This document shows positions 3,033 through 25,755 of a stretch of 64,000 nucleotides of DNA, in pieces. The position numbers and the translations under genes were made by a program. The stretch spans positions 30,271 through 94,270 of the forward strand of contig CALXMU010000002.1 in assembly GCA_944389555.1 (NCBI GenBank), in the 5' to 3' direction. The first letter of the stretch is position 1. Every line of letters begins with the position of its first letter. This stretch comes from an uncultured Alphaproteobacteria bacterium. GTDB lineage: Bacteria; Pseudomonadota; Alphaproteobacteria; Rs-D84. A model generated the notes under the pieces. It was given only the letters and a program-made list of their open reading frames with translations, had not been told where the DNA came from and did no database searches.

Positions 3033-3136
3033 AGTGCAGCAGAATGAAATACGCGTCTGAATCTAATGATGGAACAGAGGCGTTCGTATCGGTCACGATT
3101 TTCGTAGACCGCAGTAAATAAAAAGGGAAATGAAAA

Positions 3137-3514
3137 ATGGCACGTATAGCAGGTGTTAACATTCCGACAGAAAAGCGCATTGAAATTGCGTTGCAGTACA
3201 TTCATGGTATTGGACCAGCCAAAGCGGCTCAGATTTGCCAAGCTTTGAAGTTGAAAGATGGTTTGCGCGCAAAAGACTTGACTGACGAGGATGTTGTTAA
3301 AATTTCGAATTATATCGAACAAAACTTTAAAGTAGAAGGTGACGTCCGTCGTGAAGTCGCAATGAATATCAAACGTCTGCAAGATTTGAAGACGTATCGC
3401 GGTATTCGTCATCGTAACCGTTTACCAGTTCGCGGTCAACGTACTCAGACTAACGCTCGTACTCGTAAGGGTAAGCGCGTCGTAGTTGCTGGTTCCGCAG
3501 TAAAGGGTAAATAA
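3137..3514 (+). CDS. rpsM: 30S ribosomal protein S13
   Basis: [36 protein letters not shown]. Confidence 0.98.
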
Positions 3515-6414: not shown

Positions 6415-6570
6415 ATGGAATAGATAACAGAGTTTATATATTATCTGCGACCATTTTGGCGCAGTACTTTTTTATTTGTTGAATTGCCACGTGGTGCGAA
6501 ATTGCAAGTTTATAAATAGTAAAATCGACTTTGTGGTTGATTTAATCGTTGTGTATGATAACATACAAAC

Positions 6571-6769
6571 GTCAGTGGGTGTTCCATTGACGGGGTGTAG
6601 TAGCCCTTTGTAATTGTCAGAGATGACATAAAATATCGCCTCCACAATTTAGGTTGGAGGGTTGTGAATATCACGAATAAACAACACTATTATTACAATA
6701 GCTACTAACCTCCAACCACCTGAACTTTTTGGTGGTTTTTTCATTCGCAATGAAAAAAGGAGGTTTAGA
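6571..6769 (+). promoter_or_regulatory. Structured 5' leader / attenuator-like element, copy A
   Basis: Hairpin GTCAGTGG-GTGTT-CCATTGAC; GGTTGGAGG (6652-6660) complementary to CCTCCAACC (6709-6717); terminator AACCACC...GGTGGTT-TTTT; homologous to 25004-25212. Confidence 0.75.
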
Positions 6770-7192
6770 ATGAAAAAACATTTAATAATCGTCGGCATAA
6801 TTTGTGCGGCATCAATCCCACCAGCGTATGCAGTCACAAAATGCGTAAAACTAACGTCATCAACAACGTGTACAAGTTACTCTGGCGCGGTCGGTCAGTC
6901 AAATTGGTCAATGACCTGTGGCGGTATAGAAATTCAGGGTGTTGCATTTTGCAGTTCTCAAGATGGTGGTTCAAAGGGTACAATATCCGAAACTGTCACG
7001 ACCATTTCAACCAGTGACTATAACAAACATTGTTGGTGCAAAATGGTTTCACCCGCGGTTTCGTCGTGGGTGTTCAACAACTCGCGCCCGTCCGCCGGCT
7101 CTTGCGCGTACGCTTGCGCGGGCAGCTGTGCGTCCGCCGCTCGGGACTTTGCGTCTTTCCGGTCGGGGCTGTTTAGTGGACTATCTGACTAA
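6770..7192 (+). CDS. Small secreted Cys-rich protein with putative DGR-type variable C-terminus
   Basis: Signal peptide MKKHLIIVGIICAASIPPAYA; HCWCKMVSPAVSSW then CAxxCAxxCA; AGGAGG RBS. Confidence 0.85.
   Translation: MKKHLIIVGIICAASIPPAYAVTKCVKLTSSTTCTSYSGAVGQSNWSMTCGGIEIQGVAFCSSQDGGSKGTISETVTTISTSDYNKHCWCKMVSPAVSSWVFNNSRPSAGSCAYACAGSCASAARDFASFRSGLFSGLSD
7052..7174 (+). other. Putative DGR variable region (VR)
   Basis: Only 7 adenines in 123 nt, all at codon positions 1-2 of NNC codons and none at position 3; NNC/NNT codons alternate with TGY GCG codons. Confidence 0.6.
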
Positions 7193-19218: not shown

Positions 19219-20088
19219 TTATTCTAGTACATCACATGCTACGTCATAAAAGTTACAAAATAGAGTTGCAGTTGCGCGTTCTGATGCATATCCTGCTTCA
19301 CATTTATTCGGCATGCTTCGTTGACATATAGTTTCTATGCAATTTTCTAATGCGGCATCATCTTTGCAAGAAGCCTGAGCAGATAATAATTTCTGTTCGC
19401 GAGCATTTTGATAACTTGCCACAATGCTTTCTATTAAAATATCAGCGTTCTTTATTGCCGTGTCTCGTGCATTTGTCAGATTAGTACGAATGTCAGCAAT
19501 ATAATTAGCGCAACCAGTTGCTTCTACGCTGCATGCCGAAAAGAAATTATTAAAGCTGCTAGCGTCTTCACAGGCGCTATAATCTGATCCGCATCTTTTA
19601 TCTTCTATCATACAAGCCCGAATCGATGATAAGCAAGTTGAAGCACTGGCGGTTTGCTTATTTGCATCGGCAATCGTTGACGCCATTTGGGCGCTAACGC
19701 CTGCCGCACGACAAGATTGTTCTATCAATTCATCATATACGTCAGAAACGTCGTCCGCCGTGCAACCTTCAACTTTTTCAATACAGCGTCTTGCAGCCCA
19801 TATATAGCGTTGACCAGGATCCGATGGAGCGTCTTCTAATTCATCTTCTGTAATCGTGTATCGTGCAGATAATCCTAATGATAAAGCACGCATACCAGAT
19901 GAAGCAGGCGGTGTTCCGGCGTTTGCACTGCCGCAATATTGACATCTGGCTGCAGGATTCGAGGATATGTTTATCGCACATACGGAATCCAGACAACGCG
20001 TTAAATTCATTTGGGAACACGTGGCCGCCAACGTGACGCTGGGGCAGGTCATTAAAATACAAATAAAAAATAGGCTACTTTTTTTCAT
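19219..20088 (-). CDS. Secreted Cys-rich protein (289 aa), first gene of a 3-gene minus-strand operon
   Basis: Signal peptide; LTRCLDSVC...RCQYC resembles the family CMDxFC motif. Confidence 0.85.
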   Translation of the reverse strand: MKKSSLFFICILMTCPSVTLAATCSQMNLTRCLDSVCAINISSNPAARCQYCGSANAGTPPASSGMRALSLGLSARYTITEDELEDAPSDPGQRYIWAARRCIEKVEGCTADDVSDVYDELIEQSCRAAGVSAQMASTIADANKQTASASTCLSSIRACMIEDKRCGSDYSACEDASSFNNFFSACSVEATGCANYIADIRTNLTNARDTAIKNADILIESIVASYQNAREQKLLSAQASCKDDAALENCIETICQRSMPNKCEAGYASERATATLFCNFYDVACDVLE

Positions 20089-20986: not shown

Positions 20987-21052
20987 AGAAAGTTTTTTCT
21001 AGACATATAATTTAGATGTATGTTAAAATAATTCGCATAGAGAGAATTGTTT

Positions 21053-24000
21053 ATGAAATACATCAGATTATTATTATTAGCATTATTTTTAATTCCCGCT
21101 GGTTCTTTTGCAGCAAGTTCTACTAATAATGAGTTTATGGTTGCTGCTCAATTATTGTCTGCGGCAAAAAATGCCGATATTCAGCAAGTTCAGATTCTGA
21201 TAAATAGTGGTGCAAATGTAAATTATGTTGATAGTACGGGTTTGTCTTTGGTTTGTACGGCATTGATGAATAATGATATTCGTGCTGCGCAAATTTTGCA
21301 GATGTATGGTGCAGATGCTTCTCAATGTGACAGGCAAATAAAGCAATATGAATCTAGAAATAAGCCCGAAAGTAGTGGGGGGCTGTTTAGCGGATTATCC
21401 TCCGCCCATACGATTTCTTTGGCGGCGGCGGGAGCCGCCGTTGTTGTAGGTGGGCTTTTTTTATTAACTGATTGGTTGGACCCTGGTAACGAAAATAGTG
21501 GTGGTTCATCAAGTGAAAATCGTCCTGGCGGTGATGGCGGTGGAAGCGGTGGTGATAGTGAAGTTATCGTTTCAGAGGCAATTCCTGTGGGACCCGCATA
21601 TTTTACTTCTAGCGGTGAAATTTCTTATTCAGAGGCTCAATATCAATCAAATCTAGCGCAATGGGACCCAAGTGCTGGTGGAGTACGAGAAGCAGATTTT
21701 AATTATTTTAGACCGACAGAACAACCGACGAATAATTATATTATAGATGGTATTGCCGTCCCATTACAAAATTATTTGTTGATTATGCATGGGTATTCTT
21801 CTTTCGCAAACGGTTATATGGGGCAGACGACGTTTCGCGATGCTTCACATAATCCAATTAAAGTCTTAAATGAAACAGGTGGGGGAAAACCTATTCTTAC
21901 TACGTTGATTACGGCAAATGGGATAAATCCAACTGGTTCTGCAGAACGTACAGTCGAAGGTATTACTTGGTCTGATTCAACGGCTGCTACATCAAATACG
22001 TATACGTCTGATAAATATGCTAATTATAATAATCCGTCTGGTAATAATTTGGGAAATGAAATAGCTGGTTTTGATTTATCTGGCAGCGGTACAGCAATGA
22101 ATCCTTTCGCAACGGCAACGGAAACTGCGCTGGCAAAGATTATAGGCGGGTGGGAAGCTGGTGGGCGTGCTTATGGCGATTTATACGGTTTTACTCCGAA
22201 TGGGCAGTTAGCAGTATATAGAACAGGCGGTGGCGGTAAATGGGTGGATGTAGAAAAACCGACCGAAGGTGCCGTTGTAGGGACTTTGACAGATTCTGGT
22301 ACTGCTGGGACAGCCGGTGTTATTAATACTGGGGATACGATAACGATAAACGGGGTGACATACACTATATCGTCTGCATTGGATGATGCAGGGGTTACCA
22401 ATCCTACAATTACAATAGGTGATACAACCTATAAACTTGGTGCAGGCAGCAATTTGTTAAAAGGTTCTTGTACAGGTGATAATTGCGAAGACGTTTCTGA
22501 TATAGCTATTTATCAAGGTACTGATGGTTATTATTATGTAAATACTTCTGGTGGCGATAAACCTGATGCGGTTTATGTTATAAATAATAATAATATATAT
22601 ACTCAAAAAGAATGGCAGGAATCTGACGTTAGAAATTATGAGGCGATATATAACGCTAGAACAAATGGTTCAAGCGTAATTGCAAACGCAACTTTAAATC
22701 CAGACTCTCGGCAAGTTTCATATACTAATATCGGTGAAATAGAGTCCTATTTTGCTTTGGGTGGGGATTCAAACAAGAAAATATTGTTTGGAAATTTGAT
22801 AAATAATTATTATGAAAAAGATTCTAGTGACGCAACAAGTCAGGGGGGATATGCTAACTCGATATTTAATGGATATAATAACACTTTGCCGATATTGGTA
22901 AACCCGGCCGGTGAGTTTGCTTGGGGGCAGGGTGAAGGTAAAACAATGAATGTTTTAGATGCAACGTTTGAAAACTATGCACCTGCTTTATACGATTCTA
23001 ATTTAGAACACATGTTTATGACTATCGTCGCTGTTCAGCATTCTAAAGGAACTTCTAATGCGGATAGTATTTCTGGATATGGAAATGGAACGGGCAGTGA
23101 TTATGGTCCTTTATATTTATCTATGTGGAAAGACAGCGAAGGTAATCAATATATGTCCAGAAAATGTGGTGTTGCGGGTTTAGGGATAAATGGTGTTGAT
23201 CCATGGTGTTTCTCAGCGGCAGGACCAACGGCAGAAATGGCAACGGCATCTGCAGCGGGGGCCGTGGCCGCATTAAAAGGCGCCTTTAATTATATGTCTA
23301 ATACAGATATATTCATATTGATGGCGTTGACGGCAGATGGTCCTTATTTGGGAACTGATAGCGCAGGAAATGCTTTCACTGTTGATAGTTTGGTTAGTTA
23401 TCTAAAGAATATGTATTCTTTGCCGCCTGATTATCATTCTGACCAACTGTTTGGGCAAGATTATCTTGATGCGTTTGCAGAAGTATACGGTTATGGTATG
23501 ATAAACTTAGAGCGTGCTATGAAGCCTGGTAATAAAATTTATTTCTATGACGGGAATACAATTGTTTCGGATAATGGTAATGCATATTGGCGCGCAGCAT
23601 CAAATACTATATTCCGTGCGTCGTCAGCGTTTAGTCCTTCTACTGCGAAAATTAGCGCACCTTTTTATGACATCGTAGAAAGTTTAGACGGTGAAATTTC
23701 TTTACCAAGAATTTGGAAAAATGAGTTTGCTTTGGGGGCTTCCAGCAGGCGCGGTTTATATATGGGTGATGTTCTTGGTGAATTTAAGACACGTAACGAT
23801 GCGACAGAGCGCGTGCAGTTTGGTAATTTTGGTTTTTCTATGTCTTTGTCTGAAAAACCGTATGCCGATAACTTAGACGGTTTGGATAATATGGAATTAG
23901 ATTATACGTATGGTAATTGGAATTTTGCAGCTAGTTATCAAAGGCATTTTACAGATGGGGCATCTAGGTTTGATGGTATGTCCAACCCGATTTTAGGTTT

Positions 24001-24760
24001 GACTTCAAATGCAGTTACATCTGACATTGTTTATAATATGGGGCGTTGGTCTTTTGGTGGTCGCGCTTATTCTGGTGCTATCACTGATGAAACGATGTTG
24101 GATAACGACCCGACATTGGCCTCTCAATATTTGCCGGCTCGTCTTGGTATGATGCAGGGTGCACAGTCCGACGTTAATTGGCAGGGCGAAAAAATTGGTT
24201 TTTCTGCATCTGTCGGGGCGGCGTATGAAACAGATACTTTATTGGGGGCTCAGACTGGTGGACTATTAGATATGGGTAACGGAGAAACAATGTACGTTGA
24301 TACTGAGTTCCGTTATAGCCCAACGGAAAACATTACAATGAAATTGCGTTCTACTTTTGCGCGCACAACAACAGATGCCGAAGGGCAGTTCATACTTGGT
24401 ATTTCTGATATTGATTCTAATGCTTTTGCGTTTGGTGTTGACGCCGGTAATTTTAGTTTCAGTGTGGCTCAGCCGTTAAGTGTAAGCGGAGGAAGTTTGC
24501 AATATCCGTATGCGGACTATGAAATTGTAGATTTGGGTGACGGAAAGTATGATATTTCTATAAGTAATATGCATATAGAAAACGTAGATTTACGACCAGA
24601 AAACAGAGAGGTTCGTTTTACCGGTAGTTATCGTCATAATTTCGGAGAATTCACAGATGGTGCAATTGGGTTTATATATCGTGTGAACCCGAATAATACA
24701 AATGAATTCGGTAATGAATCAATCTTTATGATGAAATTGAGCCATCGTTTGGGGATTTAA
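21053..24760 (+). CDS. Large secreted protein: ankyrin repeats, degenerate subtilase (S8)-like region and beta-rich outer-membrane-like C-terminus
   Basis: LINSGANVNYVDSTGLSLV...LQMYGAD (ankyrin); MATASAAGAVAALKGAFNYMS and VYGYGMINLERAMKP (S8-like); alternating aromatic/Gly C-terminal strands. Confidence 0.75.
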   Translation: MKYIRLLLLALFLIPAGSFAASSTNNEFMVAAQLLSAAKNADIQQVQILINSGANVNYVDSTGLSLVCTALMNNDIRAAQILQMYGADASQCDRQIKQYESRNKPESSGGLFSGLSSAHTISLAAAGAAVVVGGLFLLTDWLDPGNENSGGSSSENRPGGDGGGSGGDSEVIVSEAIPVGPAYFTSSGEISYSEAQYQSNLAQWDPSAGGVREADFNYFRPTEQPTNNYIIDGIAVPLQNYLLIMHGYSSFANGYMGQTTFRDASHNPIKVLNETGGGKPILTTLITANGINPTGSAERTVEGITWSDSTAATSNTYTSDKYANYNNPSGNNLGNEIAGFDLSGSGTAMNPFATATETALAKIIGGWEAGGRAYGDLYGFTPNGQLAVYRTGGGGKWVDVEKPTEGAVVGTLTDSGTAGTAGVINTGDTITINGVTYTISSALDDAGVTNPTITIGDTTYKLGAGSNLLKGSCTGDNCEDVSDIAIYQGTDGYYYVNTSGGDKPDAVYVINNNNIYTQKEWQESDVRNYEAIYNARTNGSSVIANATLNPDSRQVSYTNIGEIESYFALGGDSNKKILFGNLINNYYEKDSSDATSQGGYANSIFNGYNNTLPILVNPAGEFAWGQGEGKTMNVLDATFENYAPALYDSNLEHMFMTIVAVQHSKGTSNADSISGYGNGTGSDYGPLYLSMWKDSEGNQYMSRKCGVAGLGINGVDPWCFSAAGPTAEMATASAAGAVAALKGAFNYMSNTDIFILMALTADGPYLGTDSAGNAFTVDSLVSYLKNMYSLPPDYHSDQLFGQDYLDAFAEVYGYGMINLERAMKPGNKIYFYDGNTIVSDNGNAYWRAASNTIFRASSAFSPSTAKISAPFYDIVESLDGEISLPRIWKNEFALGASSRRGLYMGDVLGEFKTRNDATERVQFGNFGFSMSLSEKPYADNLDGLDNMELDYTYGNWNFAASYQRHFTDGASRFDGMSNPILGLTSNAVTSDIVYNMGRWSFGGRAYSGAITDETMLDNDPTLASQYLPARLGMMQGAQSDVNWQGEKIGFSASVGAAYETDTLLGAQTGGLLDMGNGETMYVDTEFRYSPTENITMKLRSTFARTTTDAEGQFILGISDIDSNAFAFGVDAGNFSFSVAQPLSVSGGSLQYPYADYEIVDLGDGKYDISISNMHIENVDLRPENREVRFTGSYRHNFGEFTDGAIGFIYRVNPNNTNEFGNESIFMMKLSHRLGI

Positions 24761-25003
24761 TAAAAGAAATTCGTCCGGCAAGTTGTCTCACAGAAAAAGT
24801 CTGTGGGACAATTTTGTCTTACGAAATGTTTGTTTACTTTATAATCTATCTTTTTAATCGTTATCATAATATTAACACATTTATTGTAAAACTTTAGTGA
24901 GCAATAATTGCAAGATTGATGGCAAATTTAATAAAAAAGTATCTATACCAAGGAAGTTTTTAAGGTCTTTACTAGATTTATTTTTTGTATTAAACTAAAA
25001 ATG

Positions 25004-25212
25004 TCTGGGGGTGTTCCCTGGATGAGGACTTGAAACCTCTCATAGAACGTGGGGCATATGCGTTAGTATGCCGAAGTAACTCCATCCAAATTGGTTGGAG
25101 GGTGGCGATATATTTGAATAAGCCCGCTATTTTCTATGATAGTTTCAAGCCTCCAACCGCCTTCAAAATTTGGCGGTTTTTTCATTCTTTCAAATCAAAA
25201 AGGAGGTTTTGA
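25004..25212 (+). promoter_or_regulatory. Structured 5' leader / attenuator-like element, copy B
   Basis: TCTGGGG-GTGTT-CCCTGGA hairpin; GGTTGGAGG (25093-25101) with CCTCCAACC (25150-25158); terminator AACCGCC...GGCGGTT-TTTT; TTTACT-N17-TAAACT promoter at 24968-24996. Confidence 0.75.
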
Positions 25213-25755
25213 ATGAAAAAACTTATATTTGGGTTTGCTATCGTATGTTTGTATAGTTCGGTCGCTTATGCGGCACAGGATTGTTGCGCAAAATGTGGAG
25301 CAATTCCACATAGTGCATCTTGTAAAAACTCCGATATTTGTAATTGTGAAGACATTGTTACAACTGATTATACTTATGGAATTGTTACAACGCAAAAAGG
25401 AGAACTTTTGGTAAATTGTAACACTATAGCTACCGCTTTTTGCATACACGGCATAGAAAGTTATTCTTGCGCAAGCGGCTTTTATGGGACCGCAAACAAT
25501 TCAACATCTGGATGTACTAAGTGTCCGAGTAACGCCACATGCCGTGGAGGGAACTTTTCTGTTTTTGTCTGTCTACAGGGGTATTATAAAAATGGGGATA
25601 CGTGTTCACGTTGTCCTGGTTTTGGTAGTACAAATGGTACAACAGCTGGTAACGGCGCAGATTCAATAACAGATTGCTATTTGCCGGCTGGGACAAGTGG
25701 AAGTGATGCAACGGGTTCTTTTACGTATACATCTGATTGTTATTATGTGCAATAA
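25213..25755 (+). CDS. Small secreted Cys-rich protein (TNFR/GCC-like Cys modules)
   Basis: Signal peptide; SCASGFYG...CTKCPSNATCRGG, CLQGYYKNGDTCSRCP, ADSITDCY; AGGAGG RBS. Confidence 0.85.
   Translation: MKKLIFGFAIVCLYSSVAYAAQDCCAKCGAIPHSASCKNSDICNCEDIVTTDYTYGIVTTQKGELLVNCNTIATAFCIHGIESYSCASGFYGTANNSTSGCTKCPSNATCRGGNFSVFVCLQGYYKNGDTCSRCPGFGSTNGTTAGNGADSITDCYLPAGTSGSDATGSFTYTSDCYYVQ

Follow-up and report, generated by a model that had tools for sequence, protein, structure and literature searches.

We focus here on a leader RNA encoded in a 64,000-nt stretch of DNA from an uncultured Alphaproteobacteria bacterium (assembly GCA_944389555.1, contig CALXMU010000002.1, positions 30,271 to 94,270 of the forward strand; "the window" below means this whole stretch, and positions are counted from its first letter). 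The leader occurs twice in the window, both times on the + strand. Copy B, the second copy, extends from a promoter-like site through the Shine-Dalgarno sequence (SD) of a gene for a secreted Cys-rich protein (24968-25212), and copy A has the same parts at 6554-6772, adjoining the L17 gene on its downstream side. We propose, with a probability of roughly 0.65, that copy B is a self-contained expression module, in which a promoter and a cis-acting leader RNA of about 180 nt (25003-25182) would together constitute a three-hairpin transcription attenuator. That the stretch belongs to a genuine family of structured cis-leaders we hold, from sequence comparison, with very high confidence. The family is large and real, and is a larger, distant relative of the small RNA (sRNA) sRNA-Xcc1. 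It thus adds a structured RNA family with excellent covariation to what is known of uncultured, genome-reduced gut Alphaproteobacteria, for which almost no regulation has been described.

The leader family

An earlier reading of copy B, made from its letters alone (the sequence-only reading), described it as the second copy of a leader switch whose structure rather than sequence is selected, and proposed a covariance-model search and a look for further copies; both bear the description out. A covariance model seeded with six hand-checked, hand-structured copies from other genomes finds exactly two places in the window, copy B with 68.1 bits (E ~1e-17) and copy A with 79.4 bits (E ~1e-20; match 6591-6717), the third-best match having an E-value of 0.8. 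Against dinucleotide shuffles, the folding of the leader gives z = -4.8 for copy B and -4.4 for copy A. Outside the window, a scan of GTDB with one genome per species and the pattern GGTTGGAGGG-N8-18-GAATAA-N20-36-CCTCCAACC (chance expectation below 1 by our own estimate) returned at least 120 exact-pattern stretches in metagenome-assembled genomes (MAGs), among which several genomes are represented by three contigs each. Nearly all of the MAGs are labelled Candidatus Enterousia, 'Rickettsiales' or uncultured Alphaproteobacteria; Enterousia is a genus of Alphaproteobacteria incertae sedis, and around copy A the window is 84-91% identical to Enterousia loci. As this first scan fixed two of the strands discussed below, SD1 and aSD2, variants were sought separately: nine copies outside the first pattern were found by the covariance model, 43 variant copies were found in metagenomes by a variant-pattern scan, and 3 IMG/VR contigs carry the motif. 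Altogether the family has at least 160 further places, nearly all in gut or rumen Alphaproteobacteria MAGs, and the covariance model covers 112 copies across the window and 99 loci (L001-L099; L-numbers such as L012 and L067 denote loci retrieved in the family scans). No member scores at the Rfam 15 gathering threshold. Contigs labelled Bacteroides fragilis (L010) and Muribaculaceae (L029) also bear the motif; in L010 both the copy and the protein encoded behind it have near-identical counterparts in L005 and L054 from the same scan, and the two contigs L010 and L029 are probably mis-binned.

When 124 distinct copies are laid out side by side, the order of parts is constant: a -10 box, hairpin P0, hairpin Pb, strand c5', hairpin Pd, an A-rich linker, strand aSD1 (CUCCAACC), a short loop, strand SD1 (GGUUGGAGGG), hairpin Pf (loop GAAUAUAUUGAAUAA), hairpin Pg (CUAU/AUAG), strand b3' (7-8 nt), strand aSD2 (CCUCCAACC), a terminator, the SD and the gene. 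In copy B the promoter-like site occupies 24968-24996 (-35 TTTACT at 24968-24973, a 17-nt spacer and -10 TAAACT at 24991-24996), and is followed by P0, a 5'-terminal hairpin with the predicted fold GUCUGGGG / GUGUU / CCCUGGAU (25003-25023), which holds the string TCTGGGG/GTGTT/CCCTGGA (25004-25022); in copy A the -10-like TATGAT is at 6554-6559 and P0 at 6570-6592. The promoter, hairpin, terminator and SD strings quoted for copy B in the sequence-only reading are all in the places that it gave. Its promoter call holds as to the site itself, although a simple promoter scanner misses it, with 8/12 matches against a cut-off of 9. Across the family, a -10-like hexamer has its end 5-7 nt ahead of P0 in 62 of 85 copies, and a hairpin of at least 5 bp stands at the P0 position in 92 of 118. 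Plain MAFFT and RNAalifold on all copies recover only P0 and P1 (the helix of SD1 with aSD2), the variable helices being misaligned, and anchor-based parsing was therefore used instead.

Two competing helices and a terminator

The 9-nt SD1 strand (GGUUGGAGG) has two mutually exclusive predicted partners. It can pair upstream with the decoy aSD1 (CUCCAACC) to give hairpin Pe, the putative anti-antiterminator, or downstream with aSD2 (CCUCCAACC) to give P1, the putative antiterminator, which closes a three-way junction. In copy B, aSD1 (CUCCAUCC, 25080-25087) pairs with 25093-25100, SD1 (GGUUGGAGGG, 25093-25102) being the strand common to both helices, and aSD2 lies at 25150-25158; in copy A the three strands are at 6639-6644, 6652-6661 and 6709-6717. 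The sequence-only reading missed the upstream CCUCCAACC-like decoy, along with the 5' domain and the two pseudoknots described below; this decoy is the actual competitor in the switch.

Both helices are kept while their sequences change. The triplets of aSD1, SD1 and aSD2 include CUCCAACC/GGUUGGAGG/CCUCCAACC, CUCCUGAC/GUCAGGAGG/CCUCCUGAC and CCUCCUGC/GGCAGGAGG/CCUCCUGCC, with a further variant in L017 (CCUUCUGCC / GGCAGGAGG / CCUCCUGCC) and single-pair swaps in L059 and L007 (GGUUGGAGU with ACUCCAACC) and in L012 (GAUUGGAG with CUCCAAUC). In the metagenome scan any base but U was required at the fourth position of SD1, with no constraint on aSD1 or on the last four bases of aSD2, and in 43 of 43 variants the free aSD2 bases complement SD1. 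The resulting SD1/aSD2 sets are GUCA with UGAC or UGGC, GGCA with UGCC, GUCG with CGAC, UGCG with CGCG, and UGCC with GGCG. Such tracking of SD1 extends to aSD1 in the larger classes (CUCCUGAC, CCUCCUGC, CCCGA, CCCGC), and the one UGCC copy (L121) has a weak upstream partner. Measured on a mixed alignment of 93 copies, Pe is paired in 92.6% of cells against 78.8% in shuffles, with 94 double-change cells against 27, and P1 in 97.7% against 86.2%, with 76 against 25. Two helices that are unable to coexist and are both maintained by compensatory change carry the signature of a conformational switch.

The output of such a switch is suggested by what lies across the end of P1. The predicted intrinsic terminator of copy B (25155-25182) consists of AACCGCC (25155-25161), a 10-nt loop, GGCGGUU (25172-25178) and a U-run, and the last 4 nt of aSD2 begin its stem; that of copy A is at 6714-6741. 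A simple terminator scanner misses the copy B hairpin, whose 10-nt loop exceeds the limit of 8. The stem change between copy A and copy B is, as the sequence-only reading had it, a true compensatory change from A-U to G-C. In the three main classes, a terminator hairpin with a U-run starts 2-5 nt (mostly 3-4) inside aSD2 in 110/128, 24/25 and 5/5 copies, so that terminator and closing helix overlap, as in riboswitches of the ON type, in 139 of the 158 main-class copies. Furthermore, the terminator stem shifts with the class, from AACC.../...GGUU to GAC.../...GU and GCC.../...GG. This overlap of aSD2 with the terminator stem is what makes the arrangement that of a three-hairpin transcription attenuator.

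The same strand could also reach the ribosome-binding site (RBS). In copy B, CCUCC at the start of aSD2 (25150-25154) is complementary to the SD of the gene (GGAGG, 25202-25206), which is followed by the ATG at 25213; in copy A the SD is at 6759-6763 and the ATG at 6770. A longer anti-SD pairing, claimed by the sequence-only reading, does exist in both window copies, but beyond CCUCC:GGAGG it is not kept in the family: complementarity to the RBS past this core is absent from the window-type main classes (-7.0 kcal/mol against -6.8 for a foreign probe).

Two predicted pseudoknots join the flanks

The leader has, on the evidence of its pairing, a second layer of structure, in which the 5' domain (Pb and the strand that follows it) is tied to the 3' three-way junction (P1, Pf, Pg) by two helices, b and c. 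Each joins the loop of one hairpin to the tail of the other, the Pb loop contributing b5' and the Pg loop c3', and the predicted fold thus contains two H-type pseudoknots. In copy B, Pb (GAGG[ACUUGAAA]CCUC, 25024-25039) presents b5' (25029-25036) to the junction strand b3' (GUUUCAAG, 25142-25149), and strand c5' (CAUAGAA, 25041-25047) pairs with c3' (25132-25138) in the loop of Pg (CUAU[UUUCUAUG]AUAG, 25127-25142); the covariance model misaligns helix c of this copy, and the pairing is taken from the sequence. Between these lie Pd, a variable peripheral hairpin with the predicted fold GGCAUA...UAUGCC (25053-25072), and Pf (GGC/GCC, 25104-25124), with an A/U-rich conserved loop containing GAAUAA (25116-25121). 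The corresponding positions in copy A are 6592-6606 for Pb (b5' 6598-6604), 6608-6614 for c5', 6615-6628 for Pd, 6676-6681 for GAAUAA, 6687-6701 for Pg (c3' 6692-6698) and 6701-6707 for b3'.

In the covariance-model alignment 95.0% of cells are standard pairs against 74.0% in shuffles, none of 500 shuffles reaching 95.0%, and over the whole structure there are 840 double-change cells against 241, in agreement with the earlier view that selection acts on the structure and not on the sequence. If the partners are slid by 1-3 columns, the pairing falls to 36-48%. By helix, the pairing is 98.3% for b, 98.4% for c, 95.6% for Pd, 99.1% for Pf, 90.4% for Pg and 84.1% for Pb, the alignment being fitted to, and thus favouring, the nested part of the structure. 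A permutation test is free of such bias: helix b has 6.83 of 7 pairs with its own partner and 5.01 with the strand of another copy, and for c the longest run is 6.98 against 4.26 with the loop of another copy. This test is position-specific; an earlier, crude version was uninformative, since shared sequences had inflated the control. Changes on both sides are seen at all 7 pairs of b, and 8/8 pairs of c and 3/3 of Pf covary. The pairing sequences are specific to the copy, with 36 distinct b3' strands and 88 distinct Pg loops, each matching its own partner only.

The hairpins themselves vary in the same way. Pb, in the family a 4-bp hairpin with a 9-nt loop, covaries between GC, AU and GU in its stem, Pd differs in length between classes, and the Pg stem occurs as CUAU/AUAG (56 copies), CAAU/AUUG (18), ACUG/CAGU (5) and CUAC/GUAG (3), whereas the Pf loop (GAAUAUAUUGAAUAA) is strongly conserved. 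The inner hairpin of the sequence-only reading corresponds to Pg, and its stem, CUAU/AUAG, is present in both window copies; the difference claimed between the copies, and the idea that the remainder is simply a loop, do not hold, as that loop pairs with an upstream strand. In the Pg loop, 68 of 88 copies have 0 nt on the 3' side of c3', with a mean of 1.5 nt on the 5' side. A short 5' spacer that crosses the deep groove is the arrangement of H-type pseudoknots, and the placing of the unpaired nucleotides on the 5' side thus allows hairpins and long-range helices to coexist.

In the GUCA class (L128, L129, L138 and similar), the Pd region contains a GC hairpin with a run of six or seven U behind it, ahead of the junction, and the same combination is found in phage regions carrying sRNA-Xcc1 (L168 1900-1945 and L167 2420-2465). 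It looks like an internal terminator.

How the leader may act

We envisage the following sequence of events. During transcription Pe would form first. If it persists, and aSD2 has not displaced aSD1 by the time the 3' strand of the terminator is made, aSD2 would be left free and the terminator would form, giving the leader only, with a stop at 25179-25182; CCUCC could additionally cover the SD in any RNA that reads through. Should the 5' domain instead dock on the junction by way of b and c, and should aSD2 displace aSD1, P1 would form, which would block the terminator, so that the gene would be transcribed with its SD free and CCUCC held away. When either helix is forced in a calculation that ignores pseudoknots, the energies are -34.8 kcal/mol with P1 and -36.9 with SD1 paired upstream (difference -2.1 +/- 3.6), and in transcripts ending just past aSD2, P1 is part of the minimum-energy fold in 58% of copies. 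With the two states near-equal in energy, a modest input could tip the balance. Our preferred guess is that this input would be RNA-based, by analogy with phage c4 RNA and sRNA-Xcc1, and that terminated leaders or sibling copies without an open reading frame (ORF) may compete for the copy-specific b and c sequences of nascent transcripts.

Besides the neglect of pseudoknots in these energies, several points weigh against this attenuator reading. First of all, about five sequence classes, and hence few independent events, underlie the covariation of P1 and Pe, and most members were collected with a pattern that fixes SD1 and aSD2, the variant set being selected at one position. Second, Pe has one U-U mismatch in copy B, and is only 6 bp long in copy A. 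Third, termination and read-through are inferences, as is the direction in which the switch would work. Finally, no ORF follows 16 of the 124 copies, and the 5' domain is missing from two copies in L067, both of which fit a free-standing small RNA better than a pure cis leader.

Some loci carry leaders in tandem: L069 (754-880 and 1014-1147), L012 (7272-7133 and 7037-6907, - strand) and L100 (three copies, 2999-2362, - strand). The upstream copy in L069 and in L012 lacks an ORF and ends in a terminator of its own; since it shares b and almost the same c with the downstream copy, it could pair in trans with the 5' domain of its neighbour. The L067 copies (3045-2980 and 2871-2806, - strand) consist of the three-way junction and terminator alone, right behind a -10 box, and no target complementary to their loop and junction strand is found within the 6.6-kb locus.

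A bolder extension of the attenuator, which we put forward tentatively and think rather improbable as a whole, is a self-addressed RNA switch, in which each leader would carry a private two-part address (b and c) that is read by its own terminated product or by an ORF-less sibling. If this were so, the address would locate those nascent transcripts that share it and decide between the decoy hairpin and the antiterminator. The immunity logic of phage c4 and CI would then have been domesticated by gut Alphaproteobacteria as copy-specific feedback on genes for surface proteins and regulators, and what Rfam lists as sRNA-Xcc1 would be no more than the 3' half of this two-domain device, as it occurs in phages and integron cassettes.

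Genes behind and around the leaders

An ORF with an SD stands behind 108 of the 124 copies, with a median distance of 50 nt from aSD2 to the start codon. The largest cluster of downstream genes comprises 25 copies before HTH_3/HTH_31 (Cro/C1-type) proteins of 72-80 aa, and seven copies precede another, 60-aa family that has no Pfam hit and that we read, from its sequence, as probably helix-turn-helix (HTH)-like. Nineteen downstream proteins are Cys-rich and secreted; other products include Listeria-Bacteroides repeats, a glycine-rich domain, an ABC exporter, an EcoRI-type methyltransferase and Bro-N proteins. A signal-peptide-like N-terminus is found in 57 of 108 downstream proteins, and no common metabolic theme is seen. 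The controlled set is thus one of accessory and surface genes, not metabolic ones. These genes (Cys-rich secreted proteins, Cro/C1 regulators, methyltransferase, antirepressor-like proteins) are likely to shape the cell surface and the behaviour of mobile elements. The two window copies precede genes of different families, as the sequence-only reading stated: the secreted Cys-rich protein behind copy B (25213-25755; 180 aa, a signal peptide and many cysteines) and the 140-aa secreted protein behind copy A are unrelated except for the signal peptide. Its proposal of a regulon-wide switch for surface proteins survives in part. The terminator/antiterminator design is supported and roughly half of the genes behind the leaders code for proteins with a signal peptide; the proposal is too narrow, though, the largest group being Cro/C1-type HTH proteins, and 'regulon-wide' is further weakened as every copy carries its own pairing sequences.

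Within the window, a 1237-aa ORF with a weak ankyrin-repeat match (21047-24760, + strand) ends 200 nt before the copy B promoter and has a terminator-like hairpin behind it (24802-24823); such an ORF fits a host-associated lifestyle. A candidate toxin or defence gene is the 289-aa ORF at 19219-20088 (- strand), which weakly matches a HEPN/RES N-terminal domain (E 0.002, below the cut-off). At gathering thresholds Rfam gives three tRNAs only in the window. An Alpha operon ribosome-binding-site element (RF00140) is approached at 3086-3169 (+ strand; 36.2 bits against a gathering score of 38, E 1e-4), inside the block of ribosomal-protein genes that includes L17 and ends right before copy A.

Other readings of the leader

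A first alternative, which we consider possible and yet doubtful, is that the element is a gene for a trans-acting antisense RNA of the c4, CI or sRNA-Xcc1 kind. The junction would be freed by termination or by RNase P at the foot of P1, and its loop and junction strand would bind matching nascent transcripts. The topology of C4 (a closing stem, two hairpins, and antisense elements in loop 2 and the junction) is shared, and the free-standing L067 junctions with their own -10 box and the ORF-less tandem copies that share b and c with a neighbour fit such a gene well. In Xanthomonas, sRNA-Xcc1 is reported to be an 88-nt RNA in vivo, with ends that match the junction (PMC2996969). Furthermore, minor metagenome classes (GUCG, UGCG) have no U-run terminator, and in them the RBS region of a Bro-N-type gene is also complementary to the Pg loop and to the junction strand. 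This complementarity covaries (GUACAAA in L149, GAAGAA in L163), and such a target pair overlapping the RBS occurs only in minor classes (L137, L149, L156, L163). The window-type classes, on the other hand, lack RBS complementarity past the SD core, most copies have the layout of a cis element, with an ORF 50 nt further on and P1 overlapped by the terminator, and the L067 copies have no target within their own locus.

A classical riboswitch is somewhat less probable again. The pseudoknotted core with P1 would be the aptamer, and a ligand would stabilize P1 and turn the gene on. The large, conserved, pseudoknotted fold, the strongly conserved Pf loop, the overlap of P1 with the terminator (the standard ON design) and the nearly iso-energetic states would all suit such a device, as would the several copies per genome before varied genes, including those for surface proteins, which recall second-messenger riboswitches. 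However, the gene set (HTH regulators, orphan secreted proteins, methyltransferase, Bro-N) has no metabolic or transport theme, few conserved unpaired nucleotides are available in the junction to make a binding pocket, the nearest RNAs (sRNA-Xcc1 and c4) are not known to bind ligands, and the pairing of the minor-class loop and junction strand with the RBS speaks for an RNA-RNA mechanism.

We regard as unlikely a constitutive, non-switching leader that would set a fixed level of attenuation or stabilize the mRNA. No effector is known, a hairpin such as P0 at the start of the transcript is typical of stabilizers, and the copy-specific b and c sequences could be purely architectural; two exclusive, nearly iso-energetic helices that are both maintained by compensatory change are nonetheless hard to explain without a choice between them.

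The suggestion of the sequence-only reading that the 9-bp inverted repeats (GGTTGGAGG/CCTCCAACC) flank a segment inverted by a recombinase retains next to no probability. The repeats are perfect around 48 bp and stay complementary across classes, but 103 of 103 cores (window and L001-L099), each matched by the model over its full length, have one orientation relative to the 5' domain, terminator and gene, where an inversion between perfect repeats would equal the same core on the other strand. Moreover, G-U wobble pairs are tolerated, and the two repeats covary with a third, non-flanking one. The inner segment has its pairing partners beyond the repeats, the '-10-like hexamer' noted in it being the variable c3' loop. 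The neighbouring genes encode an ankyrin-repeat protein and grpE, not a recombinase, and a Pfam scan of the ten ORFs flanking both copies found no recombinase gene.

Three further candidates were set aside. A leader-peptide attenuator was rejected, as the variable parts change freely and yet keep pairing (88 distinct c sequences); the copy B leader is overlapped by just one ORF of 60 aa or more, a mechanical TTG ORF at 25030-25212. A TnpB/IS605 guide RNA was dropped, there being no transposase context and the element having its own promoter and SD. Third, a put-like RNA for processive antitermination was considered on account of the position of sRNA-Xcc1 behind a Q-like gene in phage Aaphi23 (see below), and here the terminator overlap argues for ordinary attenuation.

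Comparison with sRNA-Xcc1, C4 and attenuators

The closest described relative of the three-way junction is sRNA-Xcc1. At a relaxed threshold, the 3' part of copy B (25093-25166) aligns with the whole sRNA-Xcc1 model (RF02221) at 35.2 bits, short of the gathering score of 53, and other family copies score 31-38 bits (31.6-37.7), while copy A gives no match at E up to 10. Both RNAs have a 9-bp closing stem, a hairpin 1 with GAAUAA, a hairpin 2 and a 6-nt 3' junction strand followed by RCC. The three-way junction of sRNA-Xcc1 is thus present in the leader, where P1, Pf and Pg are backed by covariation. Both also sit before accessory genes, which for sRNA-Xcc1 are symE, ant and ORF6N. The Enterousia type differs in its plain hairpin 1 loop, in the fusion of its terminator to the closing stem and in its host range. 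In the Rfam and literature accounts consulted, sRNA-Xcc1 is an 88-nt trans sRNA of uncharacterised mechanism, given without a 5' domain, pseudoknots, decoy or terminator overlap. These accounts place it upstream of symE in integron cassettes, before an ORF6N gene in an APSE phage, and in tandem arrays in Xylella. A limited check of the accessible sRNA-Xcc1 and Enterousia literature likewise found no description of the 5' domain, pseudoknots, decoy helix or terminator coupling.

In a set of 50,697 phage records, BLAST with copy B and an Xcc1-like copy gave no match, whereas BLAST with the Rfam Xcc1 consensus gave 137 records. In phage Aaphi23 a true Xcc1 (86 bits) lies between a Q-like antiterminator gene and ant. 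In the Stx phage P13374, another (80 bits) precedes an antitermination gene and has the isrK and C4 RNAs about 800-1000 nt upstream of it on the same strand, the three RNAs being within 1 kb. Inspected by eye, both regions (n=2) have a promoter and an upstream hairpin whose loop can pair with the junction strand (UCGAAA with UUUCGA; CUCAAAAC with GUUUUGAG), followed by a strand that can pair with the hairpin 2 loop (CAAACAG with CUGUUUG; GCAAGUAG with CUACUUGC). Judged from these two and from L139, the sRNA-Xcc1 of Rfam seems to correspond to the 3' half of a two-domain design shared with the leader. Also in P13374, a 48-aa coding sequence annotated 'antB2 antirepressor' (L167 2451-2597; HE664024.1 12956-13102) overlies the 80-bit Xcc1 match and probably does not represent a real gene. 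Many pathogen and phage genomes (Stx phages, Xylella) carry an annotated Xcc1, which is regarded there as a trans sRNA linked to virulence; such RNAs may instead constitute one half of a self-pairing, c4-like leader module that precedes toxin or antirepressor genes.

A second relative by design is C4. In the C4 RNA of phage P1, the antisense elements are the hairpin 2 loop and the junction strand, and the targets are a1/b1 upstream and a2/b2 at the RBS. The Rfam consensus of C4 (RF01695) has the same long closing stem, two hairpins and antisense elements in loop 2 and the 3' junction strand. In the leader, helices c and b likewise make the hairpin 2 loop and the junction strand complementary to two upstream sites, which are short, belong to the same transcript and stand in an antiparallel-ready order (a1/b1 equals b5'/c5'). 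The minor classes have in addition the second target pair overlapping the RBS, like a2/b2. The Rfam C4 model itself has no match in the window at E up to 0.05. The mechanism of the C4 (phages P1/P7) and CI (P4) antisense RNAs has reportedly been set out by Citron & Schuster in 1990 and in later work. The overlapping intrinsic terminator and the decoy strand, on the other hand, belong to the Enterousia leader and not to c4.

In its logic the leader resembles three-hairpin attenuators of the pyr/PyrR type and ON riboswitches such as the pbuE adenine riboswitch, with which it shares overlapping alternative helices and an antiterminator strand that contributes nucleotides to the terminator; no sequence similarity of the leader to any Rfam riboswitch or leader was found. 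It differs from them in that its decoy and its antiterminator partner are near-identical, and in that two copy-specific pseudoknots join its flanks. Taken by analogy with these systems, the Enterousia leader looks like a module of the c4/Xcc1 type whose output may have been rewired to an intrinsic terminator and a decoy strand.

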